Source of the DNA: a virus | Taxonomy: Duplodnaviria > Heunggongvirae > Uroviricota > Caudoviricetes | Strand: one strand, 5' to 3' | IMG/VR virus record: IMGVR_UViG_2778261509_000015 | DNA length: 33,902 nucleotides | Shown here: piece by piece, positions 1,183 to 28,842 of the stretch | How positions within the stretch are numbered: position 1 is the first letter of the stretch | Layout of the letters: every line of letters begins with the position of its first letter | Translations under genes and position numbers: made by a program | Notes under the pieces: model-generated | Databases searched by the model: none | Seen by the model: only the letters and a program-made list of their open reading frames with translations | What the model was told of the DNA's origin: nothing

Positions 1183-1823
1183 TTGTCGGTATACCTCTCT
1201 CGTTTGCTCAGTTGTTCAGGAATATGGTGCAGCAGCTCGCCGTCACCACAGTAAATAGCGGCATGATTCGGCACCGATGAACCAAAACAGCACAGCAGCA
1301 CATCGCCCGGCTGCGCCGCTGACAACGGCACCTGATACAGCCCTGTGGCCTCCAGATTATCCAGATAGAGATTCTGTCCGTGACGCCACCAGTCATCCTC
1401 ACGATGAAAATCCGGCATCTCAATCCCCGCCAGATGGTAAGCATCCCGGAACAGCGTGTAACAGTCCGTCACCCCGTGCCCAAAGCGCCGCCCGGTGAGA
1501 TGCGGCACACAGCGGAACTTATGAATCGCCCCCCGGCAGACCAGCCACCACGGCAAATCACTCTGCACCTGCAGCCGCCTGTCGGCCTCACTCAGCCAGG
1601 GCAGACCACCGGGGTGGCTGTGGACCAGCGCCACAATCTCACCCTGCATTTTGGCCTGCAGCCAGTCCTCCGGAGCCATCCGGAAATAATCCTCCGGCTC
1701 AGCGGAGATATTCACGCAGGGGAAATATCTTTCTCCCTCCGGTGTTCTCACCACGAAGCCGCACGACTCCGCTGGCGCACATCGCCGGGCGTGCGCCAGA
1801 ATCGCTGATTCAGTTTCTGTCAT
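1080..1823 (-). CDS. K: Tail assembly protein K
   Basis: ORF track start is TTG at 1865; first ATG at 1823 gives MTETESAILAHARRCAPAESCGFV..., the recalled lambda K N-terminus; start lies 5 nt after L stop. Confidence 0.85.
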   Translation of the reverse strand: MTETESAILAHARRCAPAESCGFVVRTPEGERYFPCVNISAEPEDYFRMAPEDWLQAKMQGEIVALVHSHPGGLPWLSEADRRLQVQSDLPWWLVCRGAIHKFRCVPHLTGRRFGHGVTDCYTLFRDAYHLAGIEMPDFHREDDWWRHGQNLYLDNLEATGLYQVPLSAAQPGDVLLCCFGSSVPNHAAIYCGDGELLHHIPEQLSKRERYTDKWQRRTHSLWRHRAWHASAFTGICNDLAAASTFV

Positions 1824-18013: not shown

Positions 18014-18088
<75 letters not shown>

Positions 18089-18505
18089 ATACTATGCGGT
18101 CTTCAGTAATCACACGAATTACCGTGAAAGCCAGCACTGGTCTTTCCGACGGTAGTAACACCCCTGTGAACACCAAAATAACCGTCTTCCAGACCGACGA
18201 GAATACTAACGACATTTTTTCAGATATCAAAAATATATTTTGTTTTTAGTTTTTAATATATGTATGCATCTGTATCAGAAATATACAATTTATATCATTA
18301 CTAAATTAAAAACATTTCTCTGACGTCTGATTAAAACGTTCCTGTTCCAGTTCCGCGCCAATCACACATGGTCATTGCGTTTTACCAGTCCATCGCCACT
18401 ATCAGGCTGACCAGGGGACGCCCCACCCGAACTGCTGAGAATGCCAGGCACACAAAGAATAATGCCCGCCAAAGCGTTCCTGCATACAATGACTGCAAAA
18501 TTCAG

Positions 18506-25194: not shown

Positions 25195-25427
25195 GCTGCA
25201 CCTCCGAGATGCTTCATGTTTTTTCCGGAGCGAAAGGCTATAAGCGGCATACTGACGCGGTAATTACGGCCCAGCGGTTCACAAATCACCTTCTGGCATT
25301 CACGGTCAACCAGGCTAACACGTAGAACATGCCCTGCAGGCGTGGTGTACCACTGCCCAACTGTAGGAATTGATGTTTTTTTACGCTGAAGCAAACGGCA
25401 AATATTGAGGATCAACGGATTAAGCAT
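25191..25427 (-). CDS. Hypothetical protein (78 aa)
   Basis: ATG with GGAGGG 8 nt upstream; ATGA coupling to O-like start; no homology recognised. Confidence 0.4.
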   Translation of the reverse strand: MLNPLILNICRLLQRKKTSIPTVGQWYTTPAGHVLRVSLVDRECQKVICEPLGRNYRVSMPLIAFRSGKNMKHLGGAA

Positions 25428-26256
25428 GACGATGCCCTCCGCTGATATTCAGGAGACGGTGAATATGAAAATTAGCCTTATCCGCCAGACGAATACGTTC
25501 AGCCTGCAAGTTAAGAAGGGTTTCTACCAAAACCTGATGCGCCTGCGGATCCGAAAGAGTTACCTTGCGCAGAGCACGTAGTGCAGTTGTTACATAACTG
25601 AGTTTATGTAAGTCTTCATCATTCAGACGAGTGAGGGCTGGGACAGTAGCCATGATGGCAGCCTCCTTGATCGGTGAAATACTTCCACCACCGGAAACGC
25701 CAATTTCGCTGGTGGTGAACTGAACGGGGTTGGCGTAACCGGTGATCAAGGAAACCGGCGCATCTTTCGATGCCCCCGCCCAGCCCACCATAACTTTGAT
25801 GTGAGCAAATGCGGACGATAAAAAAGACGCTGGCGCGTCATATATCGCCTTGATCAATTCCAGGACGCCAATCCCGGCACCCGCTTTATAAGGTGCCTGA
25901 ACAGTGTAACGTCCCGGAATGGCAGAATCAATGTGCTGGTGGTCCTTCACACTCAACAAAATCACGCCTGAATTTCCACAAAGGACTAAAGCACTCATGC
26001 GGGTAGTCTTTGCGAAGATAGATAACGCGCTGTGTTTCTGGCTCCCAACGAATAACATGGACATAAAGCCCTCTTCCATCACGAAACCAGCGGTTAAGTT
26101 CCTGCACAACTCGCCCCCCACAGTCAGGTAAAGTTCTCTGTGGTTACTTACAGCCAGGTGATTTGGTAATCTGCATTCATGCCGTAACAACAGGTGTTCA
26201 GCGACGCTGACCACCAGCTGTTGCGACAAACGGTTATTTGCCGTTAAACTGTTCAT
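25420..26256 (-). CDS. Hypothetical phage protein (278 aa), function unknown
   Basis: Long ORF, ATG with GGAGAA upstream, ATGA coupling to upstream gene; size and position resemble Rac ydaU-like genes, but no sequence recall. Confidence 0.5.
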   Translation of the reverse strand: MNSLTANNRLSQQLVVSVAEHLLLRHECRLPNHLAVSNHRELYLTVGGELCRNLTAGFVMEEGFMSMLFVGSQKHSALSIFAKTTRMSALVLCGNSGVILLSVKDHQHIDSAIPGRYTVQAPYKAGAGIGVLELIKAIYDAPASFLSSAFAHIKVMVGWAGASKDAPVSLITGYANPVQFTTSEIGVSGGGSISPIKEAAIMATVPALTRLNDEDLHKLSYVTTALRALRKVTLSDPQAHQVLVETLLNLQAERIRLADKANFHIHRLLNISGGHRHA

Positions 26257-26816
26257 GCGTTAGTTTCTCCACAGACACAAAACGCCACGACGCCCGGAGC
26301 TGCACACTCGCGGGCGTCACTCTTTTCTGGAGCGCAAAAGATTTTGTAGACCAGTGCTGCATGCTCCTGGAGCTTCGAAATTGACAGATACAACTCATCA
26401 TTAATTGCTGTCTGCTCGTGTGGCTCCACTACCCCATCTTCGATTGCCGAACGAATCTGCTTTGAGTAACTCCCGATCTGTTCGATGACTTCCAGCAGGC
26501 GCTGGTTTATATCGGCGTTCTCTACTTCCTCAATTTCAGGAAGCGATACAAACACCCCACCAGCAGACTGTGCGACAGCATCCGCAATGTAGTGAGTGCC
26601 AGCCGCGCGCTGTAAAATCATTGCCCATCCCAGCGGGAAAATCTGATCGCCATCTGCACGAAGGCGGTTGAATAAAGCGTTCTCTGTTACATCCAGCCAC
26701 TCAGCAGCTTCAGCGTAACCCCCCGGCAACGCCGCGATAGTTTTTCTGACAGCTTTCACGTACCACTCAGGCTGTTTTTCTACTTTCCAGTGATGCTTAC
26801 CCACGGTTAGCCTCAT
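26253..26816 (-). CDS. Putative CII-like / YdaT-like early regulatory protein (187 aa)
   Basis: Position immediately downstream of cro-like gene; weak family resemblance only; no clear RBS. Confidence 0.4.
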   Translation of the reverse strand: MRLTVGKHHWKVEKQPEWYVKAVRKTIAALPGGYAEAAEWLDVTENALFNRLRADGDQIFPLGWAMILQRAAGTHYIADAVAQSAGGVFVSLPEIEEVENADINQRLLEVIEQIGSYSKQIRSAIEDGVVEPHEQTAINDELYLSISKLQEHAALVYKIFCAPEKSDARECAAPGVVAFCVCGETNA

Positions 26817-26847
26817 CGTTCTGTGGTTAAAAATTGAAGGTGTTCTG

Positions 26848-27048
26848 TTAATCTTTCGGATAGATATCCGGTCTTAAGTCAGATTTCGTAATTGCACCTG
26901 ACGTGCATTGCTCAAGTTTTTTAGCCAGCACAAAACTGGCTTTTTTATAACCATTGAAAACCAGCCGTAAGTAGCCTGGTGTTGAGCCAACTTTTCCGGC
27001 CAACTCGCCCTGCTGTTCTTTGGTTAAAGAGTCCCAATACGCTTTCAT
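26848..27048 (-). CDS. Cro-like repressor (YdaS-family HTH)
   Basis: ATG at 27048 with GGAGG upstream gives 66-aa MKAYWDSLTKEQQGELAGKVGSTPGYLRLVFNGYKK...SDLRPDIY; divergent from the cI-like gene. Confidence 0.65.
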   Translation of the reverse strand: MKAYWDSLTKEQQGELAGKVGSTPGYLRLVFNGYKKASFVLAKKLEQCTSGAITKSDLRPDIYPKD

Positions 27049-27053
27049 ACAAT

Positions 27054-27132
27054 ATGTACCTCCGATATACATATTACATGATTGAGATGAACCTTCAAGA
27101 TACTTGTACCCTATCGGTACAAAGGTTTTAAT
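27054..27132. promoter_or_regulatory. Immunity switch: operators O2 (27054..27072) and O1 (27104..27122) with divergent pR-like and pRM-like promoters
   Basis: O1 is the palindrome TTGTACCctatcGGTACAA; O2 is ATGTACCtccgaTATACAT. pR (minus) has -35 TTGAAG, 16 bp spacer, -10 TAATAT; pRM (plus) has -35 TTGTAC, 17 bp spacer, -10 TTTAAT and would give a leaderless cI mRNA. Confidence 0.5.
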
Positions 27133-27138
27133 TTCGTT

Positions 27139-27813
27139 ATGAAAACAGTCCATGACATCCGGCGGTCTAACGCCAGAAAACTGAGAGATGGTGTTGGCGG
27201 GAATTCTTCCTTTGCCACCATGATTGATCGCGAGCCAACCCAGACCAGCAGGTTTATGGGAGATGGTGCTACTAAAAATATCGGTGACAGCATGGCACGG
27301 CACATCGAAAAATGTTTCGACCTTCCTGTCGGATGGCTTGATCAAGAACACCAGACAACAAACATCACAAAAAAACCTGATGTTTCAATTACTAACAAAC
27401 AAATAACGTTAGTCCCTGTCATATCATGGGTACAGGCCGGAGCATGGAAAGAAGTTGGCTATTCTGAGGTTGATTTGAGCACAGCAGAAACTTATCCCTG
27501 CCCTGTACCCTGTGGCGAAATGACTTATATCTTGCGGGTGATTGGTGATTCAATGATTGATGAGTACCGCCCGGGAGACATGATTTTTGTAGATCCTGAA
27601 GTCCCTGCCTGCCACGGTGACGACGTTATTGCATTGATGCACGATACAGGCGAAACCACCTTTAAGCGGTTGATAGAAGATGGAACACAGCGTTACCTCA
27701 AAGCATTAAACCCAAACTGGCCTGAACCTTACATTAAGATCAACGGTAATTGCTCTATAATTGGTACAGTAATTTTCTCAGGAAAACCAAGAAGATACAA
27801 AATAAAGGCCTAA
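27139..27813 (+). CDS. CI-like repressor with C-terminal S24 (LexA-like) autopeptidase domain
   Basis: 224 aa; C-terminal GDSM...KR motifs of S24 peptidases; divergent from cro-like gene; start codon abuts predicted pRM start site. Confidence 0.8.
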   Translation: MKTVHDIRRSNARKLRDGVGGNSSFATMIDREPTQTSRFMGDGATKNIGDSMARHIEKCFDLPVGWLDQEHQTTNITKKPDVSITNKQITLVPVISWVQAGAWKEVGYSEVDLSTAETYPCPVPCGEMTYILRVIGDSMIDEYRPGDMIFVDPEVPACHGDDVIALMHDTGETTFKRLIEDGTQRYLKALNPNWPEPYIKINGNCSIIGTVIFSGKPRRYKIKA

Positions 27814-27825
27814 TCAATATTTATA

Positions 27826-27848
27826 ACCTGCTTCGGCAGGTTTTTTTA
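27826..27848 (+). terminator. Rho-independent terminator after cI (stem AACCTGC / GCAGGTT, UUCG loop, T7 run)
   Basis: Read directly: aacctgcttcggcaggttttttt, 13 nt after cI stop. Confidence 0.8.
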
Positions 27849-27851
27849 TAC

Positions 27852-27879
27852 TTGACAATGTACCCATGAGATACATAAT
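27852..27879 (+). promoter_or_regulatory. pL-like sigma70 promoter with overlapping operator O3
   Basis: -35 TTGACA (27852..27857), 16 bp spacer, -10 CATAAT (27874..27879); operator-like ATGTACCcatgaGATACAT (27858..27876) fills the spacer and -10. Confidence 0.6.
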
Positions 27880-28296
27880 GTATCTAAAAGAAACATGTCA
27901 CAGGCAAGATTAAACAAAATTTGGTTGTAACACGGCGTATGGCACATGCGTCGTTAGCGGTCTGGGGACGTTAAAGGGGACAATCCACTCCTTGCTCGGG
28001 CAAACAAACCAGGTAGCCGGAATGTGCAAGTCAATGATGATGCTGATAAGACGCCTAACCAGCGTGGCGATCCGGTTTGACGCCTGGGAAGAGACCAGGG
28101 TGCAACGATGAGGGCATTTATGGAGCCGCGACAAAGTGTGGTGCCGTAACTGGCTAAGTGCTCTCAGCGTTGTGGTAATCCGCGAAATGGCGCGGCGGTA
28201 AGTATGGCGGGGTTACTCTTTCCCCGTTGAGGACACCGGATTGTCAGGTTGACCATACGCCTGAGTGACAACCCCACCACAACAGCCACTGCTTTG

Positions 28297-28341
28297 GCGG
28301 TACCAGTTTGTACACTTTCTTCCGGCTGGTACCGCTCTTTT
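28297..28341 (+). terminator. Terminator-like inverted repeat in the pL leader (GCGGTACCAG...CTGGTACCGC + TCTTTTT)
   Basis: 10-bp perfect arms at 28297..28306 and 28326..28335 with 19-nt loop, followed by a T-run. Confidence 0.4.
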
Positions 28342-28479
28342 TACAAAACAGAGAAGAGCATCACCGGACGACGGGCTCATAACCCAATCCACCCGGGCGG
28401 CTGCCACCGCAGGTGTTCTTCTCTGTTTTGTGGAGAAACCAACCGACCTTGCAGGGTCGATATGATGAGGAGCAGCAAA

Positions 28480-28842
28480 ATGGCTAGCGAACGCAGTACT
28501 GATGTGCAGGCATTTATCGGGGAGCTGGACGGCGGCGTATTTGAAACCAAAATCGGCGCAGTTCTCAGTGAAGTCGCTTCAGGTGTGATGAACACGAAAA
28601 CCAAAGGTAAGGTCTCACTCAACTTGGAAATCGAACCATTTGATGAGAACCGTGTGAAAATCAAACACAAACTCTCATATGTTCGCCCGACTAACCGCGG
28701 GAAAATTTCCGAAGAAGACACCACCGAAACGCCGATGTATGTCAATCGCGGTGGTCGCCTGACTATTCTGCAGGAAGACCAGGGACAATTACTGACTCTT
28801 GCCGGTGAACCTGACGGAAAACTCCGCGCAGCAGGTCATTAA
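28480..28842 (+). CDS. YfdP-like hypothetical protein (120 aa)
   Basis: ATG at 28480 with GAGGAG 8 nt upstream; size and position match CPS-53 yfdP (sizes recalled); first gene of the yfdPQRST-like operon. Confidence 0.5.
   Translation: MASERSTDVQAFIGELDGGVFETKIGAVLSEVASGVMNTKTKGKVSLNLEIEPFDENRVKIKHKLSYVRPTNRGKISEEDTTETPMYVNRGGRLTILQEDQGQLLTLAGEPDGKLRAAGH

Follow-up and report, generated by a model that had tools for sequence, protein, structure and literature searches.

Genes and control elements

The window (the whole 33,902-nt stretch of DNA analysed here) carries a small cro-like gene and a repressor gene that diverge from a 90-bp gap, and the repressor gene is followed by a terminator, the pL promoter, and a leader that precedes the first pL gene. 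The cro-like protein gives a weak Pfam match to YdaS_toxin/HTH_3 and is annotated as cro in SfV and as ymfT in E. coli genomes. The repressor, annotated as cI in SfV and ymfK in E. coli, contains the motifs of an S24 autopeptidase domain (Ala100-Gly101, Ser138, and Lys176) and matches structures of the lambda CI C-terminal domain; for the N-terminal domain the match is weak, to the phage repressor structure 5d50 (E 0.0026). The switch comprises the following features.

26848..27048, minus strand: cro-like gene, 66 aa, YdaS/HTH family, homologue of ymfT and SfV cro; first gene of the pR operon
27054..27072: predicted OR operator site 1, ATGTACCTCCGATATACAT; 22.9 bits; covers the start region of pR and the Shine-Dalgarno sequence of cro (GGAGG, minus strand)
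27071..27098, minus strand: putative pR promoter; -35 TTGAAG (27098..27093), 16-nt spacer, -10 TAATAT (27076..27071)
27087..27105: probable OR operator site 2, ATGAACCTTCAAGATACTT; 13.0 bits; overlaps the pR -35 and adjoins the pRM -35
27104..27122: predicted OR operator site 3, TTGTACCCTATCGGTACAA; perfect 7+5+7 palindrome; overlaps the putative pRM -35, TTGTAC (27104..27109)
27127..27132, plus strand: putative pRM -10, TTTAAT; separated by 17 nt from TTGTAC upstream and by 7 nt from the repressor ATG downstream
27139..27813, plus strand: repressor gene, 224 aa, lambda-CI/LexA-type; Pfam Peptidase_S24, 1.5e-26
27825..27849, plus strand: intrinsic terminator of the repressor gene, AACCTGC-TTCG-GCAGGTT then a T-run; the SfV and Ayreon annotations mark a terminator here
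27852..27879, plus strand: pL promoter; TTGACA (27852..27857), 16 nt, CATAAT (27874..27879); 11/12 match in the promoter scan
27858..27876: predicted OL operator site 1, ATGTACCCATGAGATACAT; 24.9 bits, the highest score in the window; fills the pL -35/-10 spacer
27878..27896: probable OL operator site 2, ATGTATCTAAAAGAAACAT; 18.7 bits; over the predicted pL start

A predicted five-member operator family

The segment 27054..28335 holds 11 copies of the tetranucleotide GTAC, where its density in the window predicts 3.4 (Poisson P about 7e-4), and at least 11 copies are reached by only 0.15% of equal-sized sliding windows. The excess over chance claimed in a preliminary description of this DNA is thus borne out, and the three GTACC-centred 19-bp sites that it listed are all present, at 27054, 27104, and 27858. 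When as many as 2 mismatches are allowed, WTGTAYC-N5-GRTACAW matches at 6 places where 0.87 are expected, a number reached in 0 of 100 shuffles. A prophage-wide motif search had also been suggested, and a matrix trained on those three sites alone and run over the whole 33.9-kb window recovers two members that the description had overlooked, 27087..27105 and 27878..27896, as ranks 4 and 5. The named sites therefore do belong together, in a family of five rather than three, with members at 27054, 27087, and 27104 in the gap between the cro-like and repressor genes and at 27858 and 27878 at pL. Their matrix scores range from 13 to 25 bits, and their consensus is TGTACC-N5-GGTACA, a 17-bp core that extends to 19 bp with the flanking A/T. 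None of the GTAC copies within the repressor ORF (27430, 27505, 27564, and 27764) is operator-like, and a comparison of 17 orthologous loci places a pseudo-site at +365 from the repressor ATG only in this window and e14.

These loci comprise the immunity regions of K-12 e14 and 16 other genera, with repressors 73-88% identical, and make 18 sequences with the window included. Measured from the repressor ATG, the core sites of e14 and the 16 genera lie at -84, -51, -34, +721, and +741. In the 18 regions (alignments A3 and A4) 5-bp spacers that vary freely separate invariant half-sites, and every site in the orthologous loci that scores at least 9/12 has a 5-bp spacer. OR site 1 is at -84 in 17/17 loci, with TGTACCTCC and TACA invariant (A3), and OR site 3 is at -34/-35 in 17/17, with invariant half-sites around a spacer that differs in almost every genus (A3). 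OL site 1, found in all 17 at +719 to +748 and mostly at +721, again combines invariant half-sites with a variable spacer (A4). Placement at lambdoid OR and OL positions, invariant half-sites, and variable spacers together support the earlier proposal that these are repressor operators at pR/pRM and pL, a role we regard as predicted from sequence.

The promoters are conserved along with the sites. Neither pL hexamer, TTGACA or CATAAT, varies in alignment A4, and the equivalent of pL is annotated as a promoter in phage Ayreon. At pR, alignment A3 shows conservation of TTG in the -35 and of the -10 block; the pR hexamers fall below the threshold of the consensus scan, and we therefore infer pR from a reading of the sequence, as we do the start sites of pR, pRM, and pL. 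The putative pRM -10, of which TAAT is conserved in A3, is assigned by analogy with lambda pRM, and its position only 7 nt 5' of the repressor ATG would imply a leaderless-type mRNA. If match to the consensus reflected affinity, the presence of the best palindrome, OR site 3, on the putative pRM would be the reverse of the lambda affinity order.

Operator sequence changes along with repressor specificity. Two loci with the same leader and other repressors (L003 and L004) have 0 GTACC sites and carry other operator-like repeats, of the TTGCGCAA and AACTAAG types, and 65 contigs that bear the leader hairpin described below without this repressor type have 0 matches to the operator matrix, apart from one contig with 1.

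We consider it quite unlikely that only the three originally named sites are operators, with the sequences at 27087 and 27878 maintained by their overlap with the pR -35 and the pL -10/start, respectively. Such a reading draws on the fact that both weaker sites do overlap promoter elements, that the right half of 27878 is degenerate, and that the 17-bp core of 27087 abuts that of 27104 with no gap, which is why OR site 2 carries lower confidence. Against it, TGAACC, the left half of OR site 2, is invariant in 18/18 sequences although outside the -35 hexamer, and most genera have GGTAC as the right half, which matches better than the right half in the window. The site itself has 2 mismatches, and 0.31 matches of similar score are expected per shuffled window; it scores at least 9/12 at -51/-52 in 14/17 orthologous loci. 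Matches scoring like OL site 2 are expected at 0.005 per shuffle. Its left half is invariant, and five bases further on about 12 of the 18 sequences retain G-N-(A/T)AC (A4); its distance from OL site 1, 20 bp centre to centre or about two helical turns, would suit cooperative binding. We therefore retain five sites, two of them as probable. The 17-bp centre-to-centre distance between OR sites 2 and 3 is unusually tight for two dimers, and the invariant left half of OL site 2 overlaps the pL -10/start, where some of the conservation could reflect constraint on the promoter.

The pL leader

Downstream of OL site 2 the leader contains the following features.

28169..28275, plus strand: 107-nt leader element, 93.5% shared with the ydfC-dicF spacer of K-12 prophage Qin (alignment A2)
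28296..28342, plus strand: terminator-like RNA hairpin; 5' arm GGCGGTACCAGTT (28296..28308), 15-nt loop with TGTACA, 3' arm GGCTGGTACCGCT (28324..28336), then CTTTTT
28340..28434, plus strand: conserved, unannotated three-way-junction RNA; 23-bp outer stem of 28340..28362 with 28412..28434
28480..28842, plus strand: yfdP-like gene, 120 aa, which opens the pL operon; yfdQ and yfdR come next, and further on a xis-like gene and the integrase

The hairpin has 13 bp and a predicted fold of -21.2 kcal/mol (z -4.0), and is followed by CUUUUU. Homologues in other genera were located, at 8 of the 16 loci, by paired GGTACC and a conserved core downstream, and it is these homologues that make the case for covariation: the inner stem appears as UACC/GGUA, UGCC/GGCA, CAUC/GAUG, CGUC/GACG, or UUAUCC/GGAUAA. 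Among homologues from other genera, pairs 5-7 of the stem are variously UA/CG, AU/GC, or CG/UA, and of the 13 homologues aligned, 13/13 have a U-run after the hairpin. One-sided changes yield G-U pairs. An alignment of E. coli hairpins alone has 95% of cells paired, which is not significantly above shuffles. The hairpin at 28296..28342 was not called by a consensus terminator scan; its 15-nt loop is larger than that of a typical intrinsic terminator (about 3-8 nt), and the apex of the DicF terminator is similarly open. The hairpin most likely terminates or attenuates pL transcription.

The three-way junction lies directly 5' of the yfdP ribosome-binding site and encloses one sequence-conserved and one variable arm within its outer stem. 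Its fold reaches -47.1 kcal/mol (z -5.6), and RNAalifold on 12 diverse sequences assigns compensatory changes to 9 of its 38 pairs. Neither a scan of the whole window against Rfam at gathering thresholds nor one of the leader that allowed E values as high as 10 gave anything relevant in 27800..28520, and ARAGORN found no tRNA in the leader. The segment 27932..28175 resembles a stretch immediately upstream of a prophage tRNA-Arg. The leader module is present in 2520 of 5426 complete E. coli genomes (about 46%), against 563 with the whole immunity region, and its copy in K-12 e14 lies beneath the annotated ORF 'ymfH'.

Alternative roles for the distal GTAC copies and the hairpin

GGTACC occurs at 28299..28304 and 28328..28333, with TGTACA between at 28309..28314. 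The preliminary description took these distal copies, 440 bp downstream of pL, for everted half-sites that might support repressor-mediated looping or serve as an autoregulatory site like OL3; repressor bound at OL would then loop to them. Points in favour are that the region is rich in GTAC, that GGTACC agrees with either operator half-site at 5/6 bases, that the E. coli phages with this repressor (the window, SfV, and e14) all have a GGTACC hairpin somewhere downstream of pL, and that looping between clusters of operators is established for lambda-type repressors. The copies are instead the two arms of one inverted repeat (28296..28308 and 28324..28336). GGTACC is its own reverse complement, so that a copy in one arm of the stem requires another in the opposite arm, and the pair should not be counted as independent observations. 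The best operator-matrix score anywhere in 28280..28345 is -4.5 bits, and the sole paired arrangement, GGTACC-N4-TGTACA, has a 4-bp rather than a 5-bp spacer. The distance between the GGTACC copies ranges from 28 to 51 bp among homologues, and TGTACA is absent from the e14 loop. Hairpin and repressor are also separable: of 101 hairpin-bearing viral contigs, 65 lack this repressor type and carry others, and at 5 of the 8 other-genus loci where a homologous hairpin was found, compensatory stem changes have removed GTAC while this repressor and all GTACC operators are kept; the inner stem at such loci is CAUC/GAUG, CGUC/GACG, or UUAUCC/GGAUAA. At the remaining 8 of 16 loci the hairpin was not found in the downstream sequence examined. 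An auxiliary role in repressor binding is thus extremely improbable, and these comparisons already largely refute it in silico. Judged on sequence, the distal GGTACC copies are not operators; they form the arms of a predicted RNA terminator hairpin that is unrelated to the repressor.

What this hairpin does is a separate matter. It occupies the position of the DicF terminator of Qin, downstream of the common 107-nt element. The 5' arm TTTGGCGGTAYCAGTTT and the stem base and U-run CCGCYCTTTTT are common to both, and in both a long-range stem follows the hairpin before the next gene. The 3' end of DicF is reported to arise by Rho-independent termination (PMC5069750), and the equivalent operon yields DicF by termination and RNase processing (PMC5069750; bioRxiv 10.1101/2023.04.14.536235). 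The hairpin could by the same route be the 3' end of a trans-acting sRNA, a DicF paralogue made from the pL leader whose main role would concern host mRNAs and not pL attenuation; the pyrimidine-rich loop CUUUCUUCC, which resembles an anti-Shine-Dalgarno seed, and the very wide distribution of the module would fit such a product. Against this, the loop and 3' arm differ from those of DicF, and the 5' 12 nt of DicF (UUUCUGGUGACG) are missing from the leader. The leader gives no match to Rfam DicF (RF00039) even at E up to 10, whereas DicF in Qin, as positive control, scores 76.7 bits against a threshold of 48. The loop sequence is also unconserved among homologues, which argues against a conserved seed. 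Predicted pairing of the hairpin with the ftsZ leader does not surpass that of shuffled sequences (duplex energy z +0.5), in a crude test that does not separate DicF itself (z -1.2). We regard a trans-acting role as rather doubtful, and termination or attenuation of pL transcription as the more likely function of the hairpin.

Discussion

We propose that this region is, very probably, a lambdoid immunity switch of the SfV/cdtI/e14 type with five operators, and that its distal GGTACC copies are arms of an RNA hairpin. The CI-like repressor, with an N-terminal DNA-binding domain and a C-terminal self-cleaving S24 domain, would bind as dimers to the 17-bp cores; occupying the three OR sites in the 90-bp gap between the cro-like and repressor genes and the two OL sites, it would shut pR and pL. 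We infer both repressor binding to the five sites and the order in which they are filled. The cro-like protein would presumably use the same operators in the opposite order, and RecA-stimulated cleavage at Ala100-Gly101 would lead to prophage induction. The hairpin, about 455 nt into the pL transcript, would belong to a separately mobile leader module that precedes the first pL gene, and most likely determines, jointly with the long stem after it, how the genes downstream are processed and expressed.

The switch itself is of the ordinary, known lambda type, with an operator region that the SfV genome record has marked since 2002. Our analysis contributes a five-site operator model, TGTACC-N5-GGTACA, for a repressor type that is present in hundreds of E. 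coli genomes; K-12 e14 and the Cdt-I and Stx2c phages have it, as do relatives from 16 or more other genera. It also provides an example of a palindromic hexamer in an RNA stem that mimics extra operator half-sites. Our search of the literature on the SfV, e14 YmfK, and cdtI operators, whose coverage did not extend to the SfV genome paper, returned no binding, footprint, or transcript-end data.

The hairpin and three-way-junction RNA form the only part of the region that might repay experiments. We tentatively suggest, as a real possibility, that 28296..28434 represents an undescribed family of prophage leader RNAs, a mobile cis-regulatory module that is possibly a source of a DicF-like sRNA and maybe gates the pL operon in lambdoid phages without N. 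The N gene is absent from this phage group (PMC3851460), and the leader RNA is relevant to the control of early leftward transcription in such phages.

Comparison with known switches

The organization resembles that of lambda in its divergent cro/repressor pair, with three 17-bp inverted-repeat sites over pR and pRM, and in a second cluster of sites on pL, just past the repressor gene and on the same strand. The repressor likewise combines a lambda-CI-like S24 C-terminal domain with a VQAG cleavage motif, and a leaderless repressor mRNA, as in lambda, is probable here. The two switches differ in operator sequence, TGTACC-N5-GGTACA here against TATCACCGCCAGTGGTA-type operators in lambda, and in OL, which has two sites here and three in lambda. 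OR and OL are separated by about 755 bp here and by 2.4 kb in lambda, a shorter distance because no rex genes lie in between, and in this region site 2 abuts site 3. The closest relatives are much nearer. Over the segment from cro through the operators and repressor to OL, DNA identity is 96.8-99.1% with SfV (GenBank U82619) and cdtI and 95.4% with K-12 e14 (ymfK/ymfT), and the immunity region is essentially the same module in all of them. In the SfV record the stretch that corresponds to 27054..27122 is labelled a 'putative operator region', with individual sites unresolved and the OL sites unannotated. Homology with e14 stops at 27895, the end of OL site 2, and downstream of that site the leader of the window differs from those of SfV and e14.

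Immunity region and candidate operator sites

A lambdoid prophage lies in the window, integrated at a tRNA-Thr gene beside proA. Across 26800..28500 its DNA identity is 99.1% to phage cdtI, 98.7% to a series of Stx2c phages and, in pieces, 96.8% to Shigella phage SfV; the K-12 e14 element (ymfT/ymfK) matches the cro-operator-repressor part at 95.4%. The repressor contains a Peptidase_S24 domain (1.5e-26) and matches structures of the lambda CI C-terminal domain; its motifs VQAG (Ala100-Gly101), GDSM (Ser138) and TFKRL (Lys176) align with the lambda CI cleavage site and catalytic dyad.

Genes, promoters and candidate operator sites of the immunity region
26253..26816 (-), ymfL, cII-like
26848..27048 (-), cro-like gene, separated from the repressor gene by 90 bp
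27054..27072, site 1, just downstream of the putative pR -10 (TAATAT, - strand, 27076..27071); includes the cro Shine-Dalgarno sequence
27087..27105, site 2, over the putative pR -35 (TTGAAG, 27098..27093); abuts the putative pRM -35
27104..27122, site 3, contains the putative pRM -35, TTGTAC
27127..27132, putative pRM -10 TTTAAT, conserved, 17 nt after TTGTAC and 7 nt before the repressor ATG
27139..27813 (+), repressor, 224 aa
27825..27849, terminator of the repressor gene
27852..27857 and 27874..27879 (+), strong promoter pL from the promoter scan (TTGACA, 16 nt, CATAAT), co-directional with the repressor
27858..27876, site 4, exactly fills the pL spacer
27878..27896, site 5, over the pL start, 20 bp centre-to-centre from site 4
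pL leader, ~600 nt, precedes yfdP
28480..28842 (+), yfdP, followed by yfdQ, yfdR and more genes, the last being an xis-like gene and integrase

The preliminary description named three 19-bp sites and distal GGTACC/TGTACA copies, all of which are present where it placed them, and its claim that GTAC exceeds chance holds: 27054..28335 contains 11 copies against 3.4 expected (P ~7e-4), a count reached by only 0.15% of equal-sized sliding windows across the 33.9-kb sequence. A whole-window search for WTGTAYC-N5-GRTACAW with at most two mismatches returned 6 matches against 0.87 expected, five of them in the two regulatory regions (starting at 27054, 27087, 27104, 27858 and 27878). The sixth, 18270..18288 (CTGTATCAGAAATATACAA, 2 mismatches, 9.2 bits), has a chance-level score and lies alone ~180 bp from a tRNA gene (18017..18088).

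When a weight matrix trained only on the three named sites was scored against the window and shuffled windows, 27878 ranked fourth (18.7 bits, 0.005 such matches per shuffled window) and 27087 fifth (13.0 bits, 0.31 per shuffle). This brings the family to five members, of which the original three are an incomplete set. Site 2 is weak in the window, its core touching that of site 3, and the right half of site 5 is degenerate. With pR and pRM read from sequence, the sites appear to map onto the promoters in the lambda manner, and the conserved half-sites and promoter overlap support the proposed operator role at pR/pRM and pL, extended from three sites to five.

On the pR side, Rfam matches to C4 antisense RNA (82.3 bits, 25708..25795, -) and the Hfq-binding RNA isrK (64.2 bits, 25820..25896, -) lie inside or beside an Ash-family 'immunity region' ORF (25420..26256), and SfV has the same pair. 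These matches suggest a second, RNA-controlled immunity layer resembling P1/P7 immI.

Conservation of the predicted operators across genera

When one genome per species was scanned for repressor orthologues, 16 more genera proved to carry this repressor type (73-88% amino-acid identity), among them Pseudocitrobacter, Klebsiella, Leclercia, Atlantibacter, Phytobacter, Enterobacter, Pantoea, Trabulsiella, Kluyvera, Limnobaculum, Rahnella, Edwardsiella and Entomohabitans. Across the 16 genera and e14, 17-bp TGTACC-N5-GGTACA cores lie at near-constant distances from the repressor ATG (-84, -51, -34, +721 and +741). Alignments of the OR (A3) and OL (A4) regions show invariant half-sites around five central bases that differ in almost every genus; at site 3, for example, the spacers include CTATC, TTTAA, AACAA, CAAGA, ACAGA and TATTT. 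Invariant halves with a free spacer are the signature of a putative dimeric DNA-binding protein, rather than of blanket intergenic conservation. Two E. coli prophages that share the downstream leader and encode other repressors, L003 and L004, have no GTACC sites and carry operator-like repeats of TTGCGCAA type and AACTAAG type, respectively; predicted operator specificity thus co-varies with the repressor. Homology to e14 stops at 27895, the end of site 5, so that the five sites and two genes make up a single exchangeable immunity module.

In 16 of 18 sequences (27104..27876 in the window, and orthologues), OR site 3 and OL site 1 are 753-756 bp apart, the exceptions being 765 and 782 bp, despite repressor lengths of 221 to 224 aa and an otherwise diverged stop-to-terminator spacer. 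This constancy may reflect a spacing constraint imposed by looping, or merely few indels. Any looping would more plausibly be between OR and OL than to the distal copies.

Directly after OL, a conserved leader motif, CAGGCRGGAYGCCCACGAAGTAGCCGCC, occurs in SfV (L001, 2595..2660), e14 (L126, 3100..3160) and seven other-genus loci (just after OL in L130, L132, L133, L134, L137, L140 and L144); the window leader differs at this point. The motif may be a conserved RNA element at the start of the pL transcript in these N-less phages, the N gene having been reported absent in this group (PMC3851460).

Distal GTAC copies lie in an RNA hairpin

The distal copies, ~440 bp downstream of pL, had been read as possible sites for repressor-mediated looping or as an OL3-like autoregulatory site. 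They fall within 28296..28342 (+), GGCGGTACCAGTT-TGTACACTTTCTTCC-GGCTGGTACCGCT-CTTTTT, a hairpin with a 13-bp stem, 15-nt loop and U-run; its folding energy as RNA is -21.2 kcal/mol, where shuffled sequences give -11.2 +/- 2.5 (z -4.0). Since GGTACC is its own reverse complement, a copy in the 5' arm entails one in the 3' arm. The best operator-matrix score in this region is -4.5 bits, and the sole paired arrangement, GGTACC-N4-TGTACA, is spaced by 4 bp, against 5 in every operator core of the orthologous regions. Homologues space the two GGTACC copies anywhere from 28 to 51 bp apart, a variation that no protein of fixed geometry could accommodate, and the e14 copy, with the same repressor, has a loop without TGTACA.

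Homologous hairpins, recognized by the flanks TGCTGT..TTGGCGG and CCGC.TTTTTAC and by conserved RNA downstream, occur in 8 of the 16 other-genus orthologous loci. Five of these eight have lost GTAC from both arms through compensatory inner-stem substitutions (CAUC/GAUG in Leclercia and Enterobacter, CGUC/GACG in two Atlantibacter loci, UUAUCC/GGAUAA in Klebsiella), and all GTACC operators in the five loci are intact. As judged by sequence comparison, these loci are the decisive evidence against distal operators. E. coli variants with a UGCC/GGCA stem also occur, and one-sided stem changes produce G-U pairs, which are meaningful in RNA and lack a duplex-DNA counterpart. With the matrix score, the spacer and the orthologues all against the earlier reading, the distal copies are almost certainly not operators.

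The hairpin sequence retrieved 101 viral contigs with 1.5 kb or more of sequence upstream of it. This repressor type is encoded by 36, with 4-5 matrix matches each; the other 65 have a different repressor or none within 3.5 kb, and no matrix matches bar a single match in one contig. Complete E. coli genomes with the hairpin module number 2520 of 5426; those with most of the immunity region number only 563. By their distribution, hairpin and repressor belong to different modules.

A structured RNA in the pL leader

Right after the U-run and before the yfdP ribosome-binding site, 28340..28434 (+) forms a three-way-junction RNA (-47.1 kcal/mol, z -5.6) with a 23-bp outer stem and two arms, one conserved in sequence (CACCGGRYGACGGGYTCATAACCCAATCC..CCGGG) and one variable. 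RNAalifold on 12 diverse sequences from 7 genera gives 38 pairs, nine with compensatory double changes. No Rfam family covers 28340..28434, and in RefSeq genomes the element is unannotated or labelled 'hypothetical protein'; the K-12 e14 copy lies under ORF ymfH. The element occurs in 2520 of the 5426 complete E. coli genomes. Different phages have different first genes after it, and it is therefore part of the leader, not of yfdP. RNase III sites exist in the lambda N leader and the dicF-dicB spacer, and by analogy the leader RNA may serve in processing or in translation control.

Elsewhere in the leader, its first part (27932..28175, +) is 83.5% identical to 1501..1745 of another E. coli prophage (L196), a segment ending exactly at a tRNA-Arg gene start; ARAGORN finds no tRNA in the window's pL leader. 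Of 5426 E. coli genomes, 4790 match some part of the 1.7-kb query, and many of the short matches sampled lie within 28169..28275.

Discussion

The operator finding has a precedent in the SfV GenBank record (U82619.2), where a 69-bp 'putative operator region' is already annotated; its limits on the window coincide exactly with the start of site 1 and the end of site 3. We found no experimental operator-binding data in the literature searched. The operator finding as stated is of low interest, and the unannotated leader RNA beside it of moderate interest.

Our data very probably describe a lambda-like switch in which the distal copies are a pL-leader hairpin. We propose that repressor dimers on three OR and two OL sites would shut pR and pL, that pRM would be controlled by site 3 and/or the cro-like protein, and that SOS-triggered repressor self-cleavage would induce the prophage. 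The comparisons establish a conserved sequence family; we infer binding order, cooperativity and pRM activation from site 2. The TTTAAT-to-ATG distance points to a leaderless mRNA for the repressor, like that of lambda. The hairpin would most likely terminate part of pL transcription ~455 nt from its start.

The closest known counterpart of the hairpin is in the K-12 prophage Qin, whose ydfC-dicF spacer is 93.5% identical to the 107 nt at 28169..28275 (+) upstream of it. The DicF operon is itself a pL-type operon of a defective lambdoid prophage, and DicF ends other than the 3' end are made by RNase E and RNase III (PMC5069750; bioRxiv 10.1101/2023.04.14.536235); the 3' end has been reported to arise from Rho-independent termination (PMC5069750). 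We considered whether the element is DicF and rejected this: an Rfam search with E values as high as 10 gave no match (Qin DicF control, 76.7 bits), the 5' 12 nt of DicF are missing, and loop and 3' arm differ. A crude ftsZ-pairing test gave no signal for the hairpin, nor for DicF itself. In alignment A2 of the leader with the Qin dicF region, the hairpin takes the position of DicF and has TTTGGCGGTAYCAGTTT and CCGCYCTTTTT in common with it. The window hairpin is best read as a pL-leader terminator or attenuator, a positional relative of the DicF terminator.
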